Positions 1,375 to 18,212 of a stretch of DNA of 64,000 nt are shown in pieces. This DNA is from Bacteroidota bacterium. GTDB lineage: Bacteria > Bacteroidota > Bacteroidia > NS11-12g > UBA9320. Each line of letters begins with the position of its first letter. Positions within the stretch are counted from its first letter, which is position 1. The notes below the pieces were generated by a model. That model was not told the origin of the DNA and did no database searches. It saw only the letters and a list, made by a program, of their open reading frames with translations. Position numbers and translations under genes: made by a program. The stretch is taken from assembly GCA_002746305.1 (NCBI GenBank), contig NVWV01000009.1:72455-136454 (forward strand), written 5' to 3'.

Positions 1375-4300
1375 TTATCGTTTTATTACTTTCACTAGCT
1401 TAGTGCCAGCTTTGGTAGTTATGTTTATAAAATACATCCCAGAATTTAAACTGCTCAAATCTATGTTTTGGATACGTTGAGTACCTGCCAAACTAGCTTC
1501 TAGTAGTAGTTTTCCTTCTATGTCTGTTACTGTGATGCTAACATCACTTTCTGCTTCTGCTCCTAGGTCTATGTACACATTAGCTGTAAATGGATTTGGA
1601 TATACTGCTATATCTAGCACTTCTATCTCCTGTCCAAATAGAACTTTGCGTACTTCAGTATACTCATTTTCTCCATTGTAGTCAAACTGGTTTAGGCGGT
1701 AGTATGCCCCCTTAGTTCCTTTGGCTACCTCATGGTCTGTGTAGTTATAGTGTAGTACTTCGTTGCTATTGCCGTTTCCTGCAACTTGGTCTATAGCTGT
1801 AAAGGTGTGTCCATCATAACTGCGTTCTATCACAAAGTGACTGTTGTTTATTTCAGTAGCTGTAGCCCAGTTAAGTTGTGCTGATGTACTGGACAATGCT
1901 CTAGCTGTGAAGTTGATGAGCTCTACGGGTATTGGTGTAGAACTAGCTCCACCGCCTCCGCCGCTTCCTCCGCCACCGCCAGAGAATGAACTTACCTTAA
2001 ATTCTGCTTGGTGATCTGATATACCAAATGCTGTATAAACCCACGTGTTAATACTTGCAGTACTCCCATTAGCTAAAATTTGCCCTGTAACTCCAGACGC
2101 ATGTGGATCTAAAAATGTACCCGCTGTCGTTAGTTTATACATATCCAAATCTAAAACAGTATCAATATGCGATGTATCTGCTCCATTGTTATGATTGGCT
2201 AAGGTATCTTTCAAAGCAAGATATTCTAAATTGGTAAAATAATATCTAATGCCTACATCTCCGGCACTTGGTTGCACAGAAGGTGTTACATTCCATCTAC
2301 GGTCTAGTATTGATCCTCCCGACACATTATGTATTATTCCGCTGCTGTCACTCCAACTTATAGTTTTTGTTGCTCCTAGTTTTAAACTTACTCCATTGTC
2401 TGGCACTACGGCTCCTGTCCCATTAGTATCTAGTGATAGGATAAGCATATTGGTTCCACAATCACAATAGTGTGTCCAATCGCCATCTTTAATACTTCCA
2501 GTTGACGTGTATGTTGTACTTATAGTAGTAGGCAACACTAACGAAATAAGAAAATTATTTTCGTAAGCTCCCATATCTACATCTGTATTTTGAATACGTA
2601 TAGAATCGACAATATCCGTCATTACTCCAGATGGGATATTCCCATTATTCCCGCTATTAATCCCTTTACTACAAGGTGCTAAATACAATCCATCATCTGC
2701 GGTCATCCAAGTATTATCTGCTCCGTCTGCATCTGCATTATCTATAAACTGAGCAGGGCTGATTACACAACCTGTACCTCCACTATAACTCTGCAATAGT
2801 GAATAAGTAACGTTTGCCGTACCTCCACTCACAAGCTCTATATCTGCTCCTGATGTGGCTGTTGATCCTCCTTTGGTATTACCAGATATGATACTGTTGA
2901 CTACTGTTACTGCTGAACCATCTACTGATATAGCTCCTCCTTGATTTGCTTCGTTGGCACTAAAGGTAACTGCATTTAATGTAGCTTCTGAACTACCTGC
3001 TAGCGAGAGACCGCCACCTAAACTACTTCCTCCAGTAACACTGTTGTCTGCAACTACTGCTGTAGTAAGTGATAATATTGTAGAATTACCTAAGTGAATG
3101 GCTCCTCCTTCTTCTACCGCCATATTATTATCATACACCATACGTGATGCAGAAATATCTGCGTGGCCTGTTTGCATGCCGCCACCATTTTTCGCTGCTT
3201 GGTTATCGGCTACTATCATATCCGAGAATACTACCGTACCTCCTAGTATGTTAAGTCCTCCTCCATATTCTCTGTCTACGGTTTCTCCGCTTATGGTTAC
3301 ACTTCCACTTTGAATCGCTTTTCCGTTTACAATTTGGAATCCACTCATGGTTACTTTTCCATTTGCTTTAGTCCAGTTATCTGAACTATCTATAAGCACT
3401 ACGTGATTGGCAAATACACTACTTCCCAAGTCACCATCTAGTACAGCTGGATTAGCCAACAAATCAATAATTCCTCCACCTGTAGCATAACTACCTATTA
3501 ACTCTAGCCCTGGACGGATATGGAACGTTTTATCTTCGGCATTTGCACCAGAAATAATACTTCCACTCATATCTGCATTCATATCATACGGCTCAGTACT
3601 AGGTGTGTACGTACCTTGTGCTACATGTACTTTTTCTACTTCAGCGTACGTCCAAGCAAAATCTAAGGCTTCACCTACTGTTTTAAATGGATTTGCCCAA
3701 CTAGCTCCGTGACCACTCATTGGCACACTTGCATCTACATAAATGTCTGCCGGCGGGTCTGAAAGTGTAGAATCACTTATAGAAACTACCGTAAAGTAGG
3801 TGGTAGAACCTAACTCAAATACATCTGTAGTAATACCTGAGATGGTAAGGGCTCCGTTATTTACTGTAAACGTAGCTTCTTTTAATTCTCCATCACTCAA
3901 ATCACTATCGGTATCTACCAATAGTCGCATATCGTCCATGTTGGCATAGAAATTTTTACCGCCTAGGAGTAGATCAATGGCAAATTCTTGATTGAAACTA
4001 GTATTGGTAGTTTTCCATTCTCTACCTATTCTAGTAACTACACTAGATGGATACTCCGTAGAAACTACTCTATTTAGTGAATCTCCATTGTGTCCCATCA
4101 TAAAATAGGCTTGCCCACCAAATCCTGCTGTATTAGCTGCATTGGTAGTGGCTAGCGTACCTACATAAAGTCTAGTTGAATCATTTTTTTGATGCGACTG
4201 CTTTTGATTGAAATCACTAAATACATCACTGGCTATACCCATTATATCTTGGTTATAGTTGGCCACATCATATATTACAGTACCGCACGTACTATAATAG

Positions 4301-7300
4301 TCGCTTGGTAATACTACACCATACTTGATAGCAAGGTATGATGTCATTTGGTTTAATTCATTGGTACTTAAACTGGTATCATAAGCGATAACCTCTGCGA
4401 TGCTTCCATTCAAAAACTGATTAGGCGTACCATTCAATCTACCGCTTAAAGCAAATTTATTGAAGGTCAAGGTATCATCTCCTGTATTGATACTATCATA
4501 CGTCATAGTGGTATTGACATACATATTGGTAATGGTATCTGTGATAACTACCGAATAAATAGACGGTGTAAGTGTACCGTTGCTCTGCGATACAGGTGTG
4601 GCTCCATTTCTAATGCTACCTACTGTACTGGCAGATGTACGGGTAATCAAGGCAGATGTAGCTATTTCGCTATCATCATTTAAGGCATCTTTGGATGCGG
4701 TAAATAACGATGGATTATCTCCTTCCGTACTTTCTAAATTGGCTACTACCAATACCGAAAAACTAGTCGTGCTATCTTTTATAGATGACCCAAATGCACC
4801 TGATAAACCACCATTGTCATTAAAATTGACCGTAGGATTATAGTTATGTGCATTCATCTCTAATACAGGACTAGTACCCAACACGGTAGTGGCATTATTG
4901 CCTGCACTCGAAAAATCTGTCCAAGACTGTACATCTACTCCGCTTAGTTGCACGCCTTCATCTGCTCGTAGCCACAGCTGTACATTGGGTGTGAAACCTG
5001 CCGGTGCTGACTGCGTACAGATAGCTTCTAACTCCGCCTTGTCTGTACATCCACAGCCATTGCCTGATATAGATACAAGATTATTTATAGTAGCTATATA
5101 ATTACACATGTTGGCATACTCACAGTCAGATAGCATATCATTATTTCTAATATACACTCGCTCATTTATAGTAGCTATGTTTTCTATTCCTTTTAGGCTA
5201 ATAAGCGAATCATTATTGTCAATATGAATACGATAAACGTGGGTAAGCCCACTTAAAGCTTCTATATTTTGTAGGCGAGGATTGCTTTGTATTTCTAAGT
5301 AATGATTGGTAGTACCTACGCAGCCTTTTAGTCCATCTAGATTTTGCAAATTAGTATTACTGGTAAACTTAATCCTCCCACCTGCATCTATTTTATGAAA
5401 TGAATCTACATTTTGCACCAACGGATTACTCTCAAAATAAAAATGAGAAATACCTCCTACTATTTGCCCCAAGTGATCTACATTTTCTAATTTTAAATTT
5501 CCCGATATTGAAAATTGTTGATTGCCTGTAGTGCTCACTATGTTACGTAAGCCATAAAAATTACGGATAGAATCATTGTTGTTGAGTACTAAGCCTCTAA
5601 TACCTGTAATACCATCCAAACTATCCATATTCATCAGGTTATTGTTATCTGATATATTGAGGTTTTGTATAACTCCTGATATCTTGCCCAGTTCATCCAG
5701 ATTGGAGATGCCGTAGTTATTAGCTATCGTAAGGTGGGTTCCTACCGAGGCTATATTGTGTATGCCCTCCATATCAGTAAGTGAATCATTTTGATATATA
5801 TACAACTGCCCTGTAATACTGGTAATACCATCCAGACTATCCATAGTGCGTAAGCGATGGTTGTTTTGAATATTAAGATTATTTATGCCTGTATGAATAT
5901 TACGTAACCCATCCAAATTTTCGATGTAACTGTTGTTATTAATATCTAAATTACCATTGATGGTGGTAATGTTATGCAGACCTTGTAAATCTTCTAAGGA
6001 GTCATTGTTGTAGAGGTATAGTTGTCCATTGAGAGACGTAATACCATCTAGCGAGTCTATATTTTCTAAGCTTTTATTATTGTAAATATAAATATACCCA
6101 TTGAGGTGACCGCTAAGTTTACCCAGTGCATTTAGGTTACGCAGAGAATCATTTTCTCGTATGTGTATATATCCGTTTATACTGTCCAGTACCGCAAAAT
6201 TGTCTAATGAATTTAATTTATAGTTCCTATATATATTAAAGTAGCCATTTATCATTCGCAGGTTTTCAAAACCAGCCAAGCTAATAAGACTCCGATTTCC
6301 ATAAATATACAAACTTCCCCAAAGCGTGTCTAAGCCGGATAATGCTGTTACATCGTTTAACGAATCATTGTTATATATCTGTAGATTAGTGATCCTATCA
6401 CCTATTCCCGCAAGGGCATCTAGGTTATCCAGTATTTTATTATCTCGTATATTCAGTACCCCGTTCATAGAGGCTATATTATCCATACCGTCTAGATCAT
6501 ACAGTTTATCGTTGTTACGAATACTAATAGTCCCATTTACACGTATTACATTTTCCAGTGAATCTACGTCCGTTAGCTCATAGTTGTTTTGTATAGTCAA
6601 AGACCCATTGATGGTATCGGTTAGGTTACGCAGCGGATTAAGGTTAGGTATAAGATTGCAATTTCCAATATACAGCTGGCCTCTACACGCCGTAAGCCCT
6701 TGCAATCCTCGCAAATCCACCAGCTTGGGAAGATTAGTGAGAGTCACGTATTGCACTGTAGAGATACCTTTTAGAGCTTCTATACTAGTCAACTCTGCAT
6801 TAGTCTCCATATAAATATACCCTGATATCTCGTCTATACCTGCTAGGCCATCTAGGTTCTCCAATTTCCCCATGCTTTGAATGGATATGGAGCTAACAGT
6901 AACAGAAGACGAGGAGGTGTGAAGACCACTTAATCCATCTAAGTCTTCTACCAATGGACTGTTATAAAAAGTTATTTGACCATTCATACTGGTAAGGTTA
7001 GACAGTCCGTCTATATTTTCCAGTTTATTGTTTATATAAAAATAAATATTCCCGTTGCAACCAGTGACACTATTTAGCCCATCTACGTTTTCTAACTTCT
7101 TATTACGATTAAACTCAATCTTTCCACCTACGGAGTCTATGCCTGCGAGTCCATCTACATGGATAAGCTCTGGATTATTTATAATATAGAGCTGTCCAAT
7201 GGTTCCTGACAAACCACTTAATCCATCTAAGTTAGCCAATATAGCATTATTATTTATGGTAATACTACCATCAAGATTTACCAAACTGGTCATATTCATA

Positions 7301-8004
7301 GTAGCCATTTTATCATTGTTAAAAATATCCATATAACCGTTTATGCCAGTAATGCTATTGAAATCATCCAAATCAGTAAGTTCTTTATTTTGCCATATTC
7401 TAAAATATCCATCTATGGAATCTAGACTACTTAGGTCTATACTAGTAAGTGCATTGTTGTCTTGAATATTAAGGTAACCTCCAAGCGTACCGTCCAAATT
7501 AGACAACCCATCTAAATCTTCTAATACATTATTGTAATCTATTAGCAAATACCCTCCAATAGAATCCAACGCAGACAGTCCATCTACATTAAGTAATGCA
7601 TCATTATCATAAAATCGAAGATAACCATTTATATAAGCAAGAGCAGACAGCCCATTTACATTGAGCAATGACGAGTTTCTATAAAAATACAGTTGATTTC
7701 CAATGGAGTCCAGTTGGCTTAATGCATCTACATGGGTTATAGATGTGCTTTGTATTTGAAGTCGCCCATAAATTTTCTTTATCTTGTGTAGCGAATCGAG
7801 ATTAAGAATTGCTGACCCACTGATGGTAAGATTACCTGTAATGGTATCTACCTGCCCCAGTGCATCTACCTGTGTTTGGGTGGTTAGTGTGCCTCCTGCA
7901 TGAGTAGTAGCTAAAACATTCTGGCTAAATAGTAATAAGAAGACAAATAGGGCTGATAGTCCTGTTTTCTTCATTGAGAAAGGACATTTGTAGTGTGATT
8001 TCAT
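1375..8004 (-). CDS. 2209-aa T9SS type A cargo: receptor-L/LRR-like solenoid, LamG-like domain, beta-helix (DUF1565/choice-of-anchor-Q-like), shared pre-CTD module, Ig-like domain, CTD
   Basis: Signal peptide; ~24-aa repeats LxxIxGxLxIxxNxxLxxLDGL; VQLWLRADEGV...SYLAIKYGV; IYVDAS..GHGASWANPF..VHVAQGTYTP; VDMGAYE; PIPVELINFTA; VYPNPF...KLVKVIKR. Confidence 0.85.
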   Translation of the reverse strand: MKSHYKCPFSMKKTGLSALFVFLLLFSQNVLATTHAGGTLTTQTQVDALGQVDTITGNLTISGSAILNLDSLHKIKKIYGRLQIQSTSITHVDALSQLDSIGNQLYFYRNSSLLNVNGLSALAYINGYLRFYDNDALLNVDGLSALDSIGGYLLIDYNNVLEDLDGLSNLDGTLGGYLNIQDNNALTSIDLSSLDSIDGYFRIWQNKELTDLDDFNSITGINGYMDIFNNDKMATMNMTSLVNLDGSITINNNAILANLDGLSGLSGTIGQLYIINNPELIHVDGLAGIDSVGGKIEFNRNKKLENVDGLNSVTGCNGNIYFYINNKLENIDGLSNLTSMNGQITFYNSPLVEDLDGLSGLHTSSSSVTVSSISIQSMGKLENLDGLAGIDEISGYIYMETNAELTSIEALKGISTVQYVTLTNLPKLVDLRGLQGLTACRGQLYIGNCNLIPNLNPLRNLTDTINGSLTIQNNYELTDVDSLENVIRVNGTISIRNNDKLYDLDGMDNIASMNGVLNIRDNKILDNLDALAGIGDRITNLQIYNNDSLNDVTALSGLDTLWGSLYIYGNRSLISLAGFENLRMINGYFNIYRNYKLNSLDNFAVLDSINGYIHIRENDSLRNLNALGKLSGHLNGYIYIYNNKSLENIDSLDGITSLNGQLYLYNNDSLEDLQGLHNITTINGNLDINNNSYIENLDGLRNIHTGINNLNIQNNHRLRTMDSLDGITSITGQLYIYQNDSLTDMEGIHNIASVGTHLTIANNYGISNLDELGKISGVIQNLNISDNNNLMNMDSLDGITGIRGLVLNNNDSIRNFYGLRNIVSTTGNQQFSISGNLKLENVDHLGQIVGGISHFYFESNPLVQNVDSFHKIDAGGRIKFTSNTNLQNLDGLKGCVGTTNHYLEIQSNPRLQNIEALSGLTHVYRIHIDNNDSLISLKGIENIATINERVYIRNNDMLSDCEYANMCNYIATINNLVSISGNGCGCTDKAELEAICTQSAPAGFTPNVQLWLRADEGVQLSGVDVQSWTDFSSAGNNATTVLGTSPVLEMNAHNYNPTVNFNDNGGLSGAFGSSIKDSTTSFSVLVVANLESTEGDNPSLFTASKDALNDDSEIATSALITRTSASTVGSIRNGATPVSQSNGTLTPSIYSVVITDTITNMYVNTTMTYDSINTGDDTLTFNKFALSGRLNGTPNQFLNGSIAEVIAYDTSLSTNELNQMTSYLAIKYGVVLPSDYYSTCGTVIYDVANYNQDIMGIASDVFSDFNQKQSHQKNDSTRLYVGTLATTNAANTAGFGGQAYFMMGHNGDSLNRVVSTEYPSSVVTRIGREWKTTNTSFNQEFAIDLLLGGKNFYANMDDMRLLVDTDSDLSDGELKEATFTVNNGALTISGITTDVFELGSTTYFTVVSISDSTLSDPPADIYVDASVPMSGHGASWANPFKTVGEALDFAWTYAEVEKVHVAQGTYTPSTEPYDMNADMSGSIISGANAEDKTFHIRPGLELIGSYATGGGIIDLLANPAVLDGDLGSSVFANHVVLIDSSDNWTKANGKVTMSGFQIVNGKAIQSGSVTISGETVDREYGGGLNILGGTVVFSDMIVADNQAAKNGGGMQTGHADISASRMVYDNNMAVEEGGAIHLGNSTILSLTTAVVADNSVTGGSSLGGGLSLAGSSEATLNAVTFSANEANQGGAISVDGSAVTVVNSIISGNTKGGSTATSGADIELVSGGTANVTYSLLQSYSGGTGCVISPAQFIDNADADGADNTWMTADDGLYLAPCSKGINSGNNGNIPSGVMTDIVDSIRIQNTDVDMGAYENNFLISLVLPTTISTTYTSTGSIKDGDWTHYCDCGTNMLILSLDTNGTGAVVPDNGVSLKLGATKTISWSDSSGIIHNVSGGSILDRRWNVTPSVQPSAGDVGIRYYFTNLEYLALKDTLANHNNGADTSHIDTVLDLDMYKLTTAGTFLDPHASGVTGQILANGSTASINTWVYTAFGISDHQAEFKVSSFSGGGGGSGGGGGASSTPIPVELINFTARALSSTSAQLNWATATEINNSHFVIERSYDGHTFTAIDQVAGNGNSNEVLHYNYTDHEVAKGTKGAYYRLNQFDYNGENEYTEVRKVLFGQEIEVLDIAVYPNPFTANVYIDLGAEAESDVSITVTDIEGKLLLEASLAGTQRIQNIDLSSLNSGMYFINITTKAGTKLVKVIKR
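5010..7910 (-). repeat. In-frame ~24-aa (72-nt) receptor-L/LRR-like repeats with a 72-aa (216-nt) super-period
   Basis: Protein repeats in the ORF track; DNA motif aataccatc recurs at 5608, 5824 and 6040 (216-nt spacing). Confidence 0.85.
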
Positions 8005-8065
8005 TGATGATATAAGTTATAATAGCGTACAATATGCATTCGACAAATACAGAGGGGCAAAAAAA

Positions 8066-8100
8066 TGTGAAGTAATGACCAGTTTTTGTGAAGTACTGAC
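8066..8100. promoter_or_regulatory. Candidate LytTR-type operator: 14-bp direct repeat with 21-bp period
   Basis: TGTGAAGTAATGAC (8066-8079) and TGTGAAGTACTGAC (8087-8100), 13/14 identical, ~60-95 bp upstream of the 2209-aa gene and just downstream of a LytTR regulator gene. Confidence 0.65.
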
Positions 8101-8269
8101 ATTTGGGGTCAAACTCCTGTTGTTTTAACCCTGAATTCGATTAATAATTCAAGACATAGTTTATTAAAAACCTATAGATATAAGACGATTTTTTTGCAGC
8201 ACTAATGGATTAATTGAACTTAGGTTTTAAGCTAAATATGTCACAGGTTCACAAAAGATAAAAGTACAC

Positions 8270-8965
8270 TTATAGTTCCTTGCATCTTTCCAAGACGCTT
8301 TTTTTATAAAGCTTGGAAATAGGAATACTCTCCTCTTCATCAGATATCCACAACTGATCTCCTTCTATGCGTTTCACAAAATCTGTATTGACAATGAATC
8401 TACGATGTACTTGGATGAAATGGCTATTCAGTTTTATGGATATATCACTCAATTTGGAGCGAGTAATGTGATTGGAATTGGGCAATACTATTTTTACATA
8501 GTTAGCATCAGAATATACCATCTTAATGTCCGATTGCTTAAGATTTCTCATTGTCTTTTTGGACCCTATGGTTAGGAAATCACTCTTTACTCTAGAAATA
8601 GAATCTATGACAATTTTTAAATTTGTAAGCACAGAAACCTCATTGTATGGTTTAAGAATAAATCCATCCGGTTTGGTTTCCATTACCGTTTTCATTGTTT
8701 GATGATCAGAATAGGCCGTCAGATACACAATTTTCAAATCCATTTCAGCCCTAATTTGTCCAGCTAAATGTGTACCAGATTGTCCAGAGCCCAGATTCAC
8801 ATCTAATAATACGATGTCTACTTGAAGCTGTCGCAACTCCTGCCATGCCTTTTCTGCATTGGATGCAGACCCAACTACATCGTATTTGTTTTTAAGCAAA
8901 AGTATCTCCAATGCTGTGCGGCTCACCGCCATGTCTTCTACTACGTAGACCCGATTATTTCTCAT
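8270..8965 (-). CDS. LytTR-family response regulator (REC + LytTR)
   Basis: VYVVED, VLLDVNL phosphoacceptor, FILKPY; C-terminal IKMVYSDANYVKI...FIQVHRRFIVN...IPISKLYKK LytTR motifs. Overlaps kinase stop by 11 nt. Confidence 0.92.
   Translation of the reverse strand: MRNNRVYVVEDMAVSRTALEILLLKNKYDVVGSASNAEKAWQELRQLQVDIVLLDVNLGSGQSGTHLAGQIRAEMDLKIVYLTAYSDHQTMKTVMETKPDGFILKPYNEVSVLTNLKIVIDSISRVKSDFLTIGSKKTMRNLKQSDIKMVYSDANYVKIVLPNSNHITRSKLSDISIKLNSHFIQVHRRFIVNTDFVKRIEGDQLWISDEEESIPISKLYKKSVLERCKEL

Positions 8966-18212: not shown

Follow-up and report, generated by a model that had tools for sequence, protein, structure and literature searches.

The window analysed here is a 64,000-nucleotide stretch (G000:C1:72455–136454) of a Bacteroidota genome, G000, of 3.87 Mb in 22 contigs. 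Its left part interleaves genes for type IX secretion system (T9SS) cargos with genes for two signalling systems, and our subject is the possible wiring of those sensors to the neighbouring cargos. Genes were called as open reading frames (ORFs) and scanned with Pfam, ten ORFs being covered between positions 1 and 20854. The scans bear out a sequence-only reading of this DNA, which had placed three T9SS cargos within 1375–18212 together with two systems that use tetratricopeptide-repeat (TPR) sensors: a HisKA_2 kinase with a LytTR regulator (module 1) and a hybrid kinase–receiver–AraC protein (module 2; Table 1). The cargos, which it took for large adhesin-like surface proteins, are large repeat or solenoid proteins of surface type. 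Its view that these are not polysaccharide utilisation loci (PULs) also stands, there being no match to SusC/SusD or to a glycoside hydrolase family among the ten ORFs.

Each cargo closes with a Por_Secre_tail domain (E values 1.8e-14, 3e-12 and 3e-12 for cargos A, B and C) that ends at most two residues from the C terminus, and hydropathy places a hydrophobic segment at each N terminus; these features mark all three as cargos with a type A carboxy-terminal domain (CTD). The genome encodes the T9SS translocon, judged on SprA (SprA_N match, E = 1.3e-157, in a 2365-amino-acid (aa) ORF). Terminator-like elements appear to divide the region. The hairpin beyond cargo A resembles an intrinsic terminator and suggests that this gene is a single-gene transcription unit, the perfect hairpin before cargo B would set that gene apart from the kinase operon, and the inverted repeat beyond cargo C makes it probable that the hybrid gene is served by a separate promoter. 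The kinase and regulator genes overlap by 11 bases. The likely units are kinase plus regulator, with cargo A, cargo B, cargo C and the hybrid each alone. Scanning for the sigma-70 consensus was uninformative (64 sites against 69.5 expected), Bacteroidota promoters deviating from that consensus.

The two sensors share a layout. A TPR block (about 380 aa, residues 40–418, in the kinase and 340 aa, residues 46–386, in the hybrid) lies between an N-terminal signal-like segment and a single transmembrane (TM) helix (420–446 and 388–419, respectively), with basic residues following the helix on the kinase side. This bracketing predicts a periplasmic location for both TPR blocks. An AlphaFold2 model of the HisKA_2 kinase, built from 20 homologues (mean predicted local distance difference test score 83.7, above 90 across most of the sensor), has 16 helices at 52–360, then one continuous helix (364–493) running through the membrane into the dimerization domain. 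Its best structural matches are the HWE/HisKA_2 kinase EL346 and the eight-repeat TPR superhelices of LGN/Pins, with NprR and Rap lower down; searching the PDB by sequence yielded nothing beyond the kinase core (EL346) and a weak match to the TPRs of LGN. The best matches of the modelled sensor are RRNPP-type and LGN-type peptide receptors, whose eight-repeat superhelices wrap extended peptides. NprR, Rap and LGN/Pins are, however, cytoplasmic, are not kinases and share 11–15% identity with the kinase sensor, a likeness of fold class that says nothing about ligand. By analogy, the cue of the TPR sensors is possibly a peptide or protein.

Such sensors had been taken for unusual, which proved mistaken. 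TPR-HisKA_2 kinases are common in Bacteroidota, and NCBI has a standard name for them, 'tetratricopeptide repeat-containing sensor histidine kinase'. Among the 120 relatives closest to the hybrid, searched from transmitter to helix-turn-helix (HTH), TPR hybrids of about 930 aa and Reg_prop/Y_Y_Y hybrids of about 1350 aa are about equally frequent, so TPR hybrids are a common but unstudied architecture.

Table 1 Genes, candidate operators and terminator-like elements, in window positions
Feature	Position	Strand	Description and basis
Sensor kinase	8955–10937	−	Signal-like segment, TPR_12/TPR_1, one TM, HisKA_2, HATPase_c; Pfam, hydropathy, model
Response regulator	8270–8965	−	231 aa, Response_reg + LytTR; Pfam
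Cargo A	1375–8004	−	2209 aa, signal peptide, long Recep_L_domain/leucine-rich-repeat-like solenoid, type A Por_Secre_tail; Pfam, hydropathy
Proposed LytTR operator	8066–8100	−	GTCAGTACTTCACA-aaaactg-GTCATTACTTCACA-tttttttgcc; 9-bp core TACTTCACA, 12-bp spacer, period 21
Hybrid two-component protein	15405–18212	+	935 aa, signal-like segment, TPR, TM, HisKA, HATPase_c, Response_reg, HTH_18/AraC; Pfam, hydropathy
Cargo B	11096–14152	−	1018 aa, Ig_7 + propeller-like repeats, type A Por_Secre_tail; Pfam, hydropathy
Cargo C	14482–15123	+	213 aa, signal peptide, type A Por_Secre_tail CTD; Pfam, hydropathy
Proposed AraC-type site 1	14237–14262	+	TGACAAAGTTGTACGTTTTTTCGCCA; half-sites TGACA and CGCCA 21 bp apart; 85–110 bp from cargo B start
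Proposed AraC-type site 2	14339–14364	+	TGCCAAAGTTGTTCAATATTTCGCCA; 118–143 bp upstream of cargo C start
Terminator-like hairpin	1321–1348	−	CCCTCTGCC-ATTG-GGCAGGGGG then T run, just past cargo A stop; sequence reading
Terminator-like hairpin	11050–11073		Perfect 11-bp arms (10 pairs counted), A and T runs on either side; lies between cargo B and kinase gene
Terminator-like inverted repeat	15182–15266	+	12-nt arms, 92% complementary, then T run; 3′ of cargo C
Fourth cargo, N-terminal part	2–1183	−	Cut by window start; Pfam, whole-ORF and CTD hidden Markov model (HMM) match

The LytTR module and its candidate operator

Both domains of the regulator exceed their curated cut-offs (Response_reg 2.1e-19, LytTR 2.9e-15), and the predicted receiver Asp is D55, within VLLDVNL. 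Between its gene and cargo A stands a direct repeat whose copies, TGTGAAGTAATGAC and TGTGAAGTACTGAC (8066–8079 and 8087–8100), agree at 13 of 14 positions, start 21 bp apart and both match the degenerate 14-mer TGTGAAGTAMTGAC exactly. Known LytTR operators are direct repeats 11–13 bp apart just upstream of the −35 element (PMC6193735; AgrA in PMC4227749), a geometry that the two TACTTCACA repeats with their 12-bp spacer share. The putative operator lies 61–96 bp upstream of the cargo A start codon, with TTTTTTTGCC directly after it. Half-site variants seen are ACTTCACA, ACTTAACA and ACTTTACA.

The exact repeat pair occurs once in the genome. At two mismatches or fewer, TGTGAAGTAMTGAC has five matches in the window against 1.09 expected, and genome-wide its single copies are not enriched (48, control 55). 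The sequence-only reading had proposed repeats of 21-bp period near the cargo promoters: the one at 8066–8100 is real and unique, and the one at 14236–14364 turned out to be two 26-nt sites and no simple array. We found no operator-like site upstream of the window's own kinase, so autoregulation is not indicated at this locus. In orthologous loci the site also lies 5′ of the kinase operon, which suggests autoregulation there, as in known LytTR systems (PMC4227749, PMC6193735).

The closest relative of the kinase is only 36–37% identical, a back-translated peptide search of genome contigs gave no close relative, and 40 same-genus and same-order genomes contain no ortholog (best match 33% identity, from another family). 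The N-terminal 1400 aa of cargo A have no ortholog in the same 40 relatives, where the shared C-terminal module alone matches. The pair is therefore absent from these genomes rather than unpaired. At family level, the pairing of TPR kinase and cargo persists in distant Bacteroidota. In the four closest homologous loci examined, the LytTR regulator follows the kinase immediately each time, and the core ACTTCACA-N13-ACTTCACA recurs near orthologous kinase/regulator pairs of Polaribacter, of Fulvivirga and of Flavobacteriaceae metagenome-assembled genomes (MAGs). There it sits ahead of non-homologous giant secreted proteins or of the kinase operon itself.

Scanning 596 Gb for exact ACTTCACA-N13-ACTTCACA-N1-4-TTTTG gave 14 matches, ten of them in Bacteroidota; those elsewhere (L026, L027, L029 and L033) were rejected as CTTCACA tandem or chance matches. 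At four Polaribacter loci the site adjoins the HisKA_2 kinase and/or LytTR gene, either 5′ of the kinase (L025, L034 and L038) or between the regulator and the next gene (L030). A Polaribacter MAG has it ahead of a DUF285/YDG/MBG protein of more than 1755 aa, and Fulvivirga marina carries, on one strand, the site, a 2528-aa Laminin_G_3/CBM6 giant, the kinase and the regulator. Two near-identical sites lie 1.08 Mb apart in the Flavobacteriaceae MAG OZ255723.1, the first 5′ of a kinase, a regulator and an 896-aa FG-GAP Por_Secre_tail cargo, the second 5′ of a 2845-aa NHL/Calx-beta/CHU_C giant. At locus L022, where the kinase is 37% identical, tACTTCACA-N13-ACTTCACAaatttttgcc stands directly past the regulator stop, 5′ of an HYR/Ig-like/C-type-lectin protein of more than 1091 aa. 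At L023 a variant, ACTTAACA-N13-ACTTAACA, lies 60–85 bp upstream of a Por_Secre_tail gene divergent from the kinase.

The window regulator and the regulators of the site-bearing HisKA_2 loci form one clade (ultrafast bootstrap 100; SH-like approximate likelihood ratio test, SH-aLRT, 98), and 15 of the 16 other LytTR regulators of G000 fall outside it, across the root. This regulator family and a shared operator core recur over several orders of the phylum, some of the loci having a giant secreted target, and the targets are not homologous to one another. Such sequence comparison is good footprinting evidence that the regulator would bind the repeat and control the gene downstream.

Two further loci touch on this family. 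Genome G093 carries at least five tandem 21-bp units, AGGTCAACTTCACATTGAAAT, that include the ACTTCACA core (L048:1417–1550), with no informative neighbouring genes in the surrounding 3 kb. Beside a TPR-HisKA_2/LytTR pair, L021:13328–14911 encodes a 527-aa protein with TPR repeats and LytTR and without a receiver, which would be a one-component relative.

The hybrid regulator and the twin 26-nt sites

The hybrid is a single polypeptide that runs from sensor through HisKA, HATPase_c and receiver to an AraC-type HTH, all domains lying above their cut-offs, and residues 45–388 match TPR families only, with no Reg_prop/Y_Y_Y propeller. The twin sites between cargos B and C are identical at 21 of 26 positions and 102 bp apart, and each contains TGMCA and CGCCA half-sites at 21-bp distance; a further TGACA occurs at 14321, apart from the sites themselves. 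With up to three substitutions allowed, their 26-mer consensus matches nowhere else in the genome (reversed control 0). A 21-bp distance between direct half-sites is classical for AraC/XylS.

In G000 three of five hybrids directly abut cargos. Elsewhere six homologous TPR-hybrid loci were examined, and in five of them the neighbours are Por_Secre_tail genes or Peptidase_S74 giants; the sixth, L092, has no adjacent cargo, and L043 has lost its upstream side to a contig end. On three unrelated metagenomic or MAG contigs (L044:1–4944, L045:2907–8000 and L091:1–3819) a Peptidase_S74 giant diverges from one or two TPR hybrid kinase–AraC genes. Their shared promoter regions contain half-sites exactly 21 bp apart, namely TTCGCCA-N14-TTCGCCA (L045), TTGGACA-N14-TTCGCCA (L091) and TTGGACA-N14-TTGGACA (L044), and the TTCGCCA half-site matches that of the window. 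Tandem 21-bp units with GGACA occur at L043.

A small Por_Secre_tail protein joins the giant in L045 and L091. We considered the small CTD proteins beside TPR hybrids as one homologous family and rejected this, the CTD alone matching, so a conserved co-sensor is not supported. A different motif, TTGTCCGAA(T/C)A, occurs elsewhere in G000 5′ of the genes for two TPR-hybrid paralogs and for one 1588-aa cargo (at about C4:21370–21390, C4:24400–24420 and C3:125640–125660); it is absent upstream of the window's hybrid.

Cargos, regulators and repeats across the genome

An iterated HMM search for the terminal type A CTD finds about 220 such ORFs in G000, together 12% of the genome. Of its 17 LytTR regulators, ten have a cargo gene no more than 1.5 kb away (2.6 expected; none of 2000 randomisations reached ten), and most of the remainder sit ahead of large signal-peptide proteins. 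Five related genomes place 13 of 41 LytTR regulators within that distance, which is about twice expectation on a rough estimate from cargo densities. G000 is the largest genome of its genus in the sample, with 17 LytTR regulators against 2–8 in four congeners. The association of LytTR regulators with cargos is general and strongest in G000.

Several other LytTR cassettes of G000 carry repeats of their own, of 20–22-bp period, between regulator and target; overall, 31 of 1341 intergenic regions contain an 11/12 repeat at 19–23-bp spacing. At C19:200794–200853, three tandem ATCCATTGGGAAATAAATCA copies of period 20 (the first two exact, the third departing from them at the 3′ end) stand between a LytTR gene and an 854-aa T9SS cargo gene, and look like the separate operator of a paralogous cassette. 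The pair AAACTTTACA-N11-AAACTTTACA at C19:217467–217495 (period 21) differs by one base from the ACTTCACA core and lies 66–94 bp upstream of a 274-aa signal-peptide protein, with ABC-transporter-like genes next in line; possibly this is the site of the genome's second HisKA_2-linked LytTR regulator (C13:214324–219157). TTAACCA or its complement forms intergenic direct repeats at exactly 21-bp spacing in at least four places (C3:140365, C5:259742, C10:270739 and C16:122107) and may be the operator of another regulator family.

In cargo A, a C-terminal stretch of roughly 110–540 residues preceding the CTD matches cargo B, three more G000 proteins and many in related genomes at 33–55% identity, the matching regions in the window being 1920–2520 and 11640–12260, and the N-terminal 1400 residues of cargo A are unique. 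This pattern fits a shared pre-CTD module. The fourth cargo, at the window edge, is a whole protein of 658 aa in the contig (G000:C1:71661–73637), with signal peptide, CarboxypepD_reg, a VWA-like part and a CTD.

Two proposed switches and their alternatives

We lean, with real reservations, towards a reading in which two independent switches of conventional type are each wired to neighbouring T9SS surface-protein genes. The sequences themselves show the domain architectures with their predicted topology, two real and unique repeat elements, similar repeats beside homologous regulators and a statistical link of LytTR genes with cargos; we infer binding and activation, which way control runs and what kind of signal is read. 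In module 1, the periplasmic TPR HisKA_2 kinase would phosphorylate the LytTR regulator, a dimer of which would bind the two repeats at 8066–8100 and activate the weak promoter directly downstream, and with it the single-gene unit of the 2209-aa solenoid cargo. In module 2, the TPR hybrid would bind its twin sites in the divergent promoter (14237–14364) and control the 1018-aa and 213-aa cargos. A regulatory coupling of sensors to adjacent cargos had been proposed at the outset, and recurring sites beside homologous regulators lend it comparative support in both modules. On this sequence evidence, support for the wiring of sensor to cargo is good in the LytTR module and moderate in the AraC hybrid module. 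The exact cassette is species-specific; the design is phylum-wide.

Module 1 has clear counterparts. In AgrCA (Staphylococcus aureus), ComDE, PlnBCD and HdrRM/BrsRM (Streptococcus mutans), a receiver-LytTR regulator is likewise encoded beside a kinase. Shared features are the two 9-bp direct repeats with a 12-bp spacer, their place upstream of a weak promoter and the control of adjacent genes for exported products, which for module 1 is our proposal. The kinase differs from AgrC in being a single-TM HisKA_2 protein with a periplasmic TPR superhelix of about 380 aa, not a polytopic AgrC/HPK10 protein. Further differences from Agr-type systems are that no peptide-pheromone gene is evident, that the targets are T9SS giants and that the host belongs to the Bacteroidota. 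Among the papers found that join LytTR with type IX secretion, T9SS or tetratricopeptide, all of them genome descriptions or comparative-genomics or transcriptome surveys, none has a title or abstract on such regulation.

The hybrid of module 2 equals in domain order the hybrid two-component systems (HTCSs) of Bacteroidota PULs (BT1754 and BT4663 of Bacteroides thetaiotaomicron) and, like them, is encoded near its presumed targets. From transmitter to HTH it is up to about 51% identical (mostly about 40%) to Reg_prop/Y_Y_Y hybrids. Unlike in PUL HTCSs, a TPR array replaces the Reg_prop/Y_Y_Y propeller and the neighbours are T9SS cargos, with no SusC/SusD or glycoside hydrolase genes nearby. 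The nearest characterised non-PUL hybrid is GppX, from Porphyromonas gingivalis and Tannerella forsythia, which combines two membrane segments with a kinase, a receiver and an AraC-like HTH, a likeness drawn from its description. In T. forsythia GppX is a direct activator of a promoter and has effects on surface glycoproteins (PMC5388701). Its known direct target is a muropeptide-uptake/glycosylation operon (PMC5388701), whereas adjacent T9SS cargos are proposed here.

Several observations weigh against the two-switch reading. The window sequence is carried by DNA runs alone, labelled subsurface metagenome, and no RNA run matched it. Ahead of cargo A's start codon no canonical TAnnTTTG box is evident. 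Across 301 genomes of the class, the exact 16-base core gives five sites against four for the control, and two of these look like low-complexity CACA runs; the operator family is thus sparse, and we discarded the exact core, too rare and too strict, as a census tool for the class. For module 2, both 26-nt sites have the same orientation while the promoters of cargos B and C diverge, the hybrid sensor domain searched alone finds no detectable ortholog, and the GppX operon is not described as adjacent to gppX (PMC5388701). The half-site match of that module was also noticed after the fact, and its regulators are only about 40% identical, for which reasons we rate it below module 1. Lastly, with 12% of the genome in cargo genes, some adjacency to regulators is expected by chance.

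It is rather unlikely, although worth weighing, that only module 1 is real, the twin 26-nt sites belonging to another regulator or being no operators at all, the hybrid controlling distant genes and its cargo neighbours being incidental. GppX offers a precedent: it activates its muropeptide/glycosylation operon with pleiotropic effects (PMC5388701), and gppX mutants show no T9SS defect, a proposed role in gingipain secretion not having been reproduced (PMC6590471). The hybrid's orphan sensor, and the locus without an adjacent cargo beside the one cut by a contig end, point the same way. Against this, half-site pairs of the same type and 21-bp spacing occur in promoter regions beside three homologous hybrids, in what is textbook AraC/XylS geometry; the twin sites are unique in the genome; and Pfam identifies no other DNA-binding regulator encoded within about 10 kb.

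We regard it as improbable that the switches are real and that the TPR domains monitor the cell's own secretion traffic (cargo CTDs, unfolded giant passengers or T9SS load), giving feedback control. It would suit the targets of the conserved LytTR module, non-homologous giants with only T9SS export signals in common, and the small CTD-only proteins that repeatedly accompany TPR hybrids; yet the Fulvivirga target has no CTD match, and the strong divergence of sensors between orthologs equally suits varied external ligands. That the arrangement is coincidental, regulator neighbours being inevitable in a cargo-rich genome and the repeats chance or relics, is very improbable and was already disfavoured: the abundance of CTD genes, the frequency of similar intergenic repeats and the absence of the exact cassette from 40 relatives speak for it, but LytTR–cargo adjacency has P < 0.0005 by randomisation, the same operator core accompanies orthologous regulators in further orders of the phylum and both repeat elements are unique in the genome.

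Returning to two switches wired to their neighbours, a wider extension is conceivable, though we hold it to be quite unlikely. The TPR-HisKA_2 kinase, LytTR regulator and TACTTCACA-N12-TACTTCACA would be a portable cassette, repeatedly placed before unrelated giant T9SS proteins across Bacteroidota. With the LytS-type and AraC-hybrid cassettes of G000 it would form a phylum-wide layer of gene-by-gene control over the surface proteome, whose TPR domains may sense secretion traffic of the cell itself, or peptides derived from contact, in place of nutrients.

Bacteroidota encode hundreds of T9SS cargos per genome and, to our knowledge, almost nothing is known of how individual ones are switched on. 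Even if the two-switch reading is true it would add no new signalling principle. Both switches are of conventional two-component type, in unstudied families. The locus and its relatives supply a testable operator consensus for an unstudied LytTR regulator family and a candidate consensus for TPR-type hybrids. Fulvivirga marina (strain 29W222) is cultured and has this same circuit, its orthologous kinase and regulator lying at L039 5492–8181, which makes knock-outs and reporter assays practicable. If the reading is right, the regulons of giant adhesin-like proteins would become predictable from sequence.

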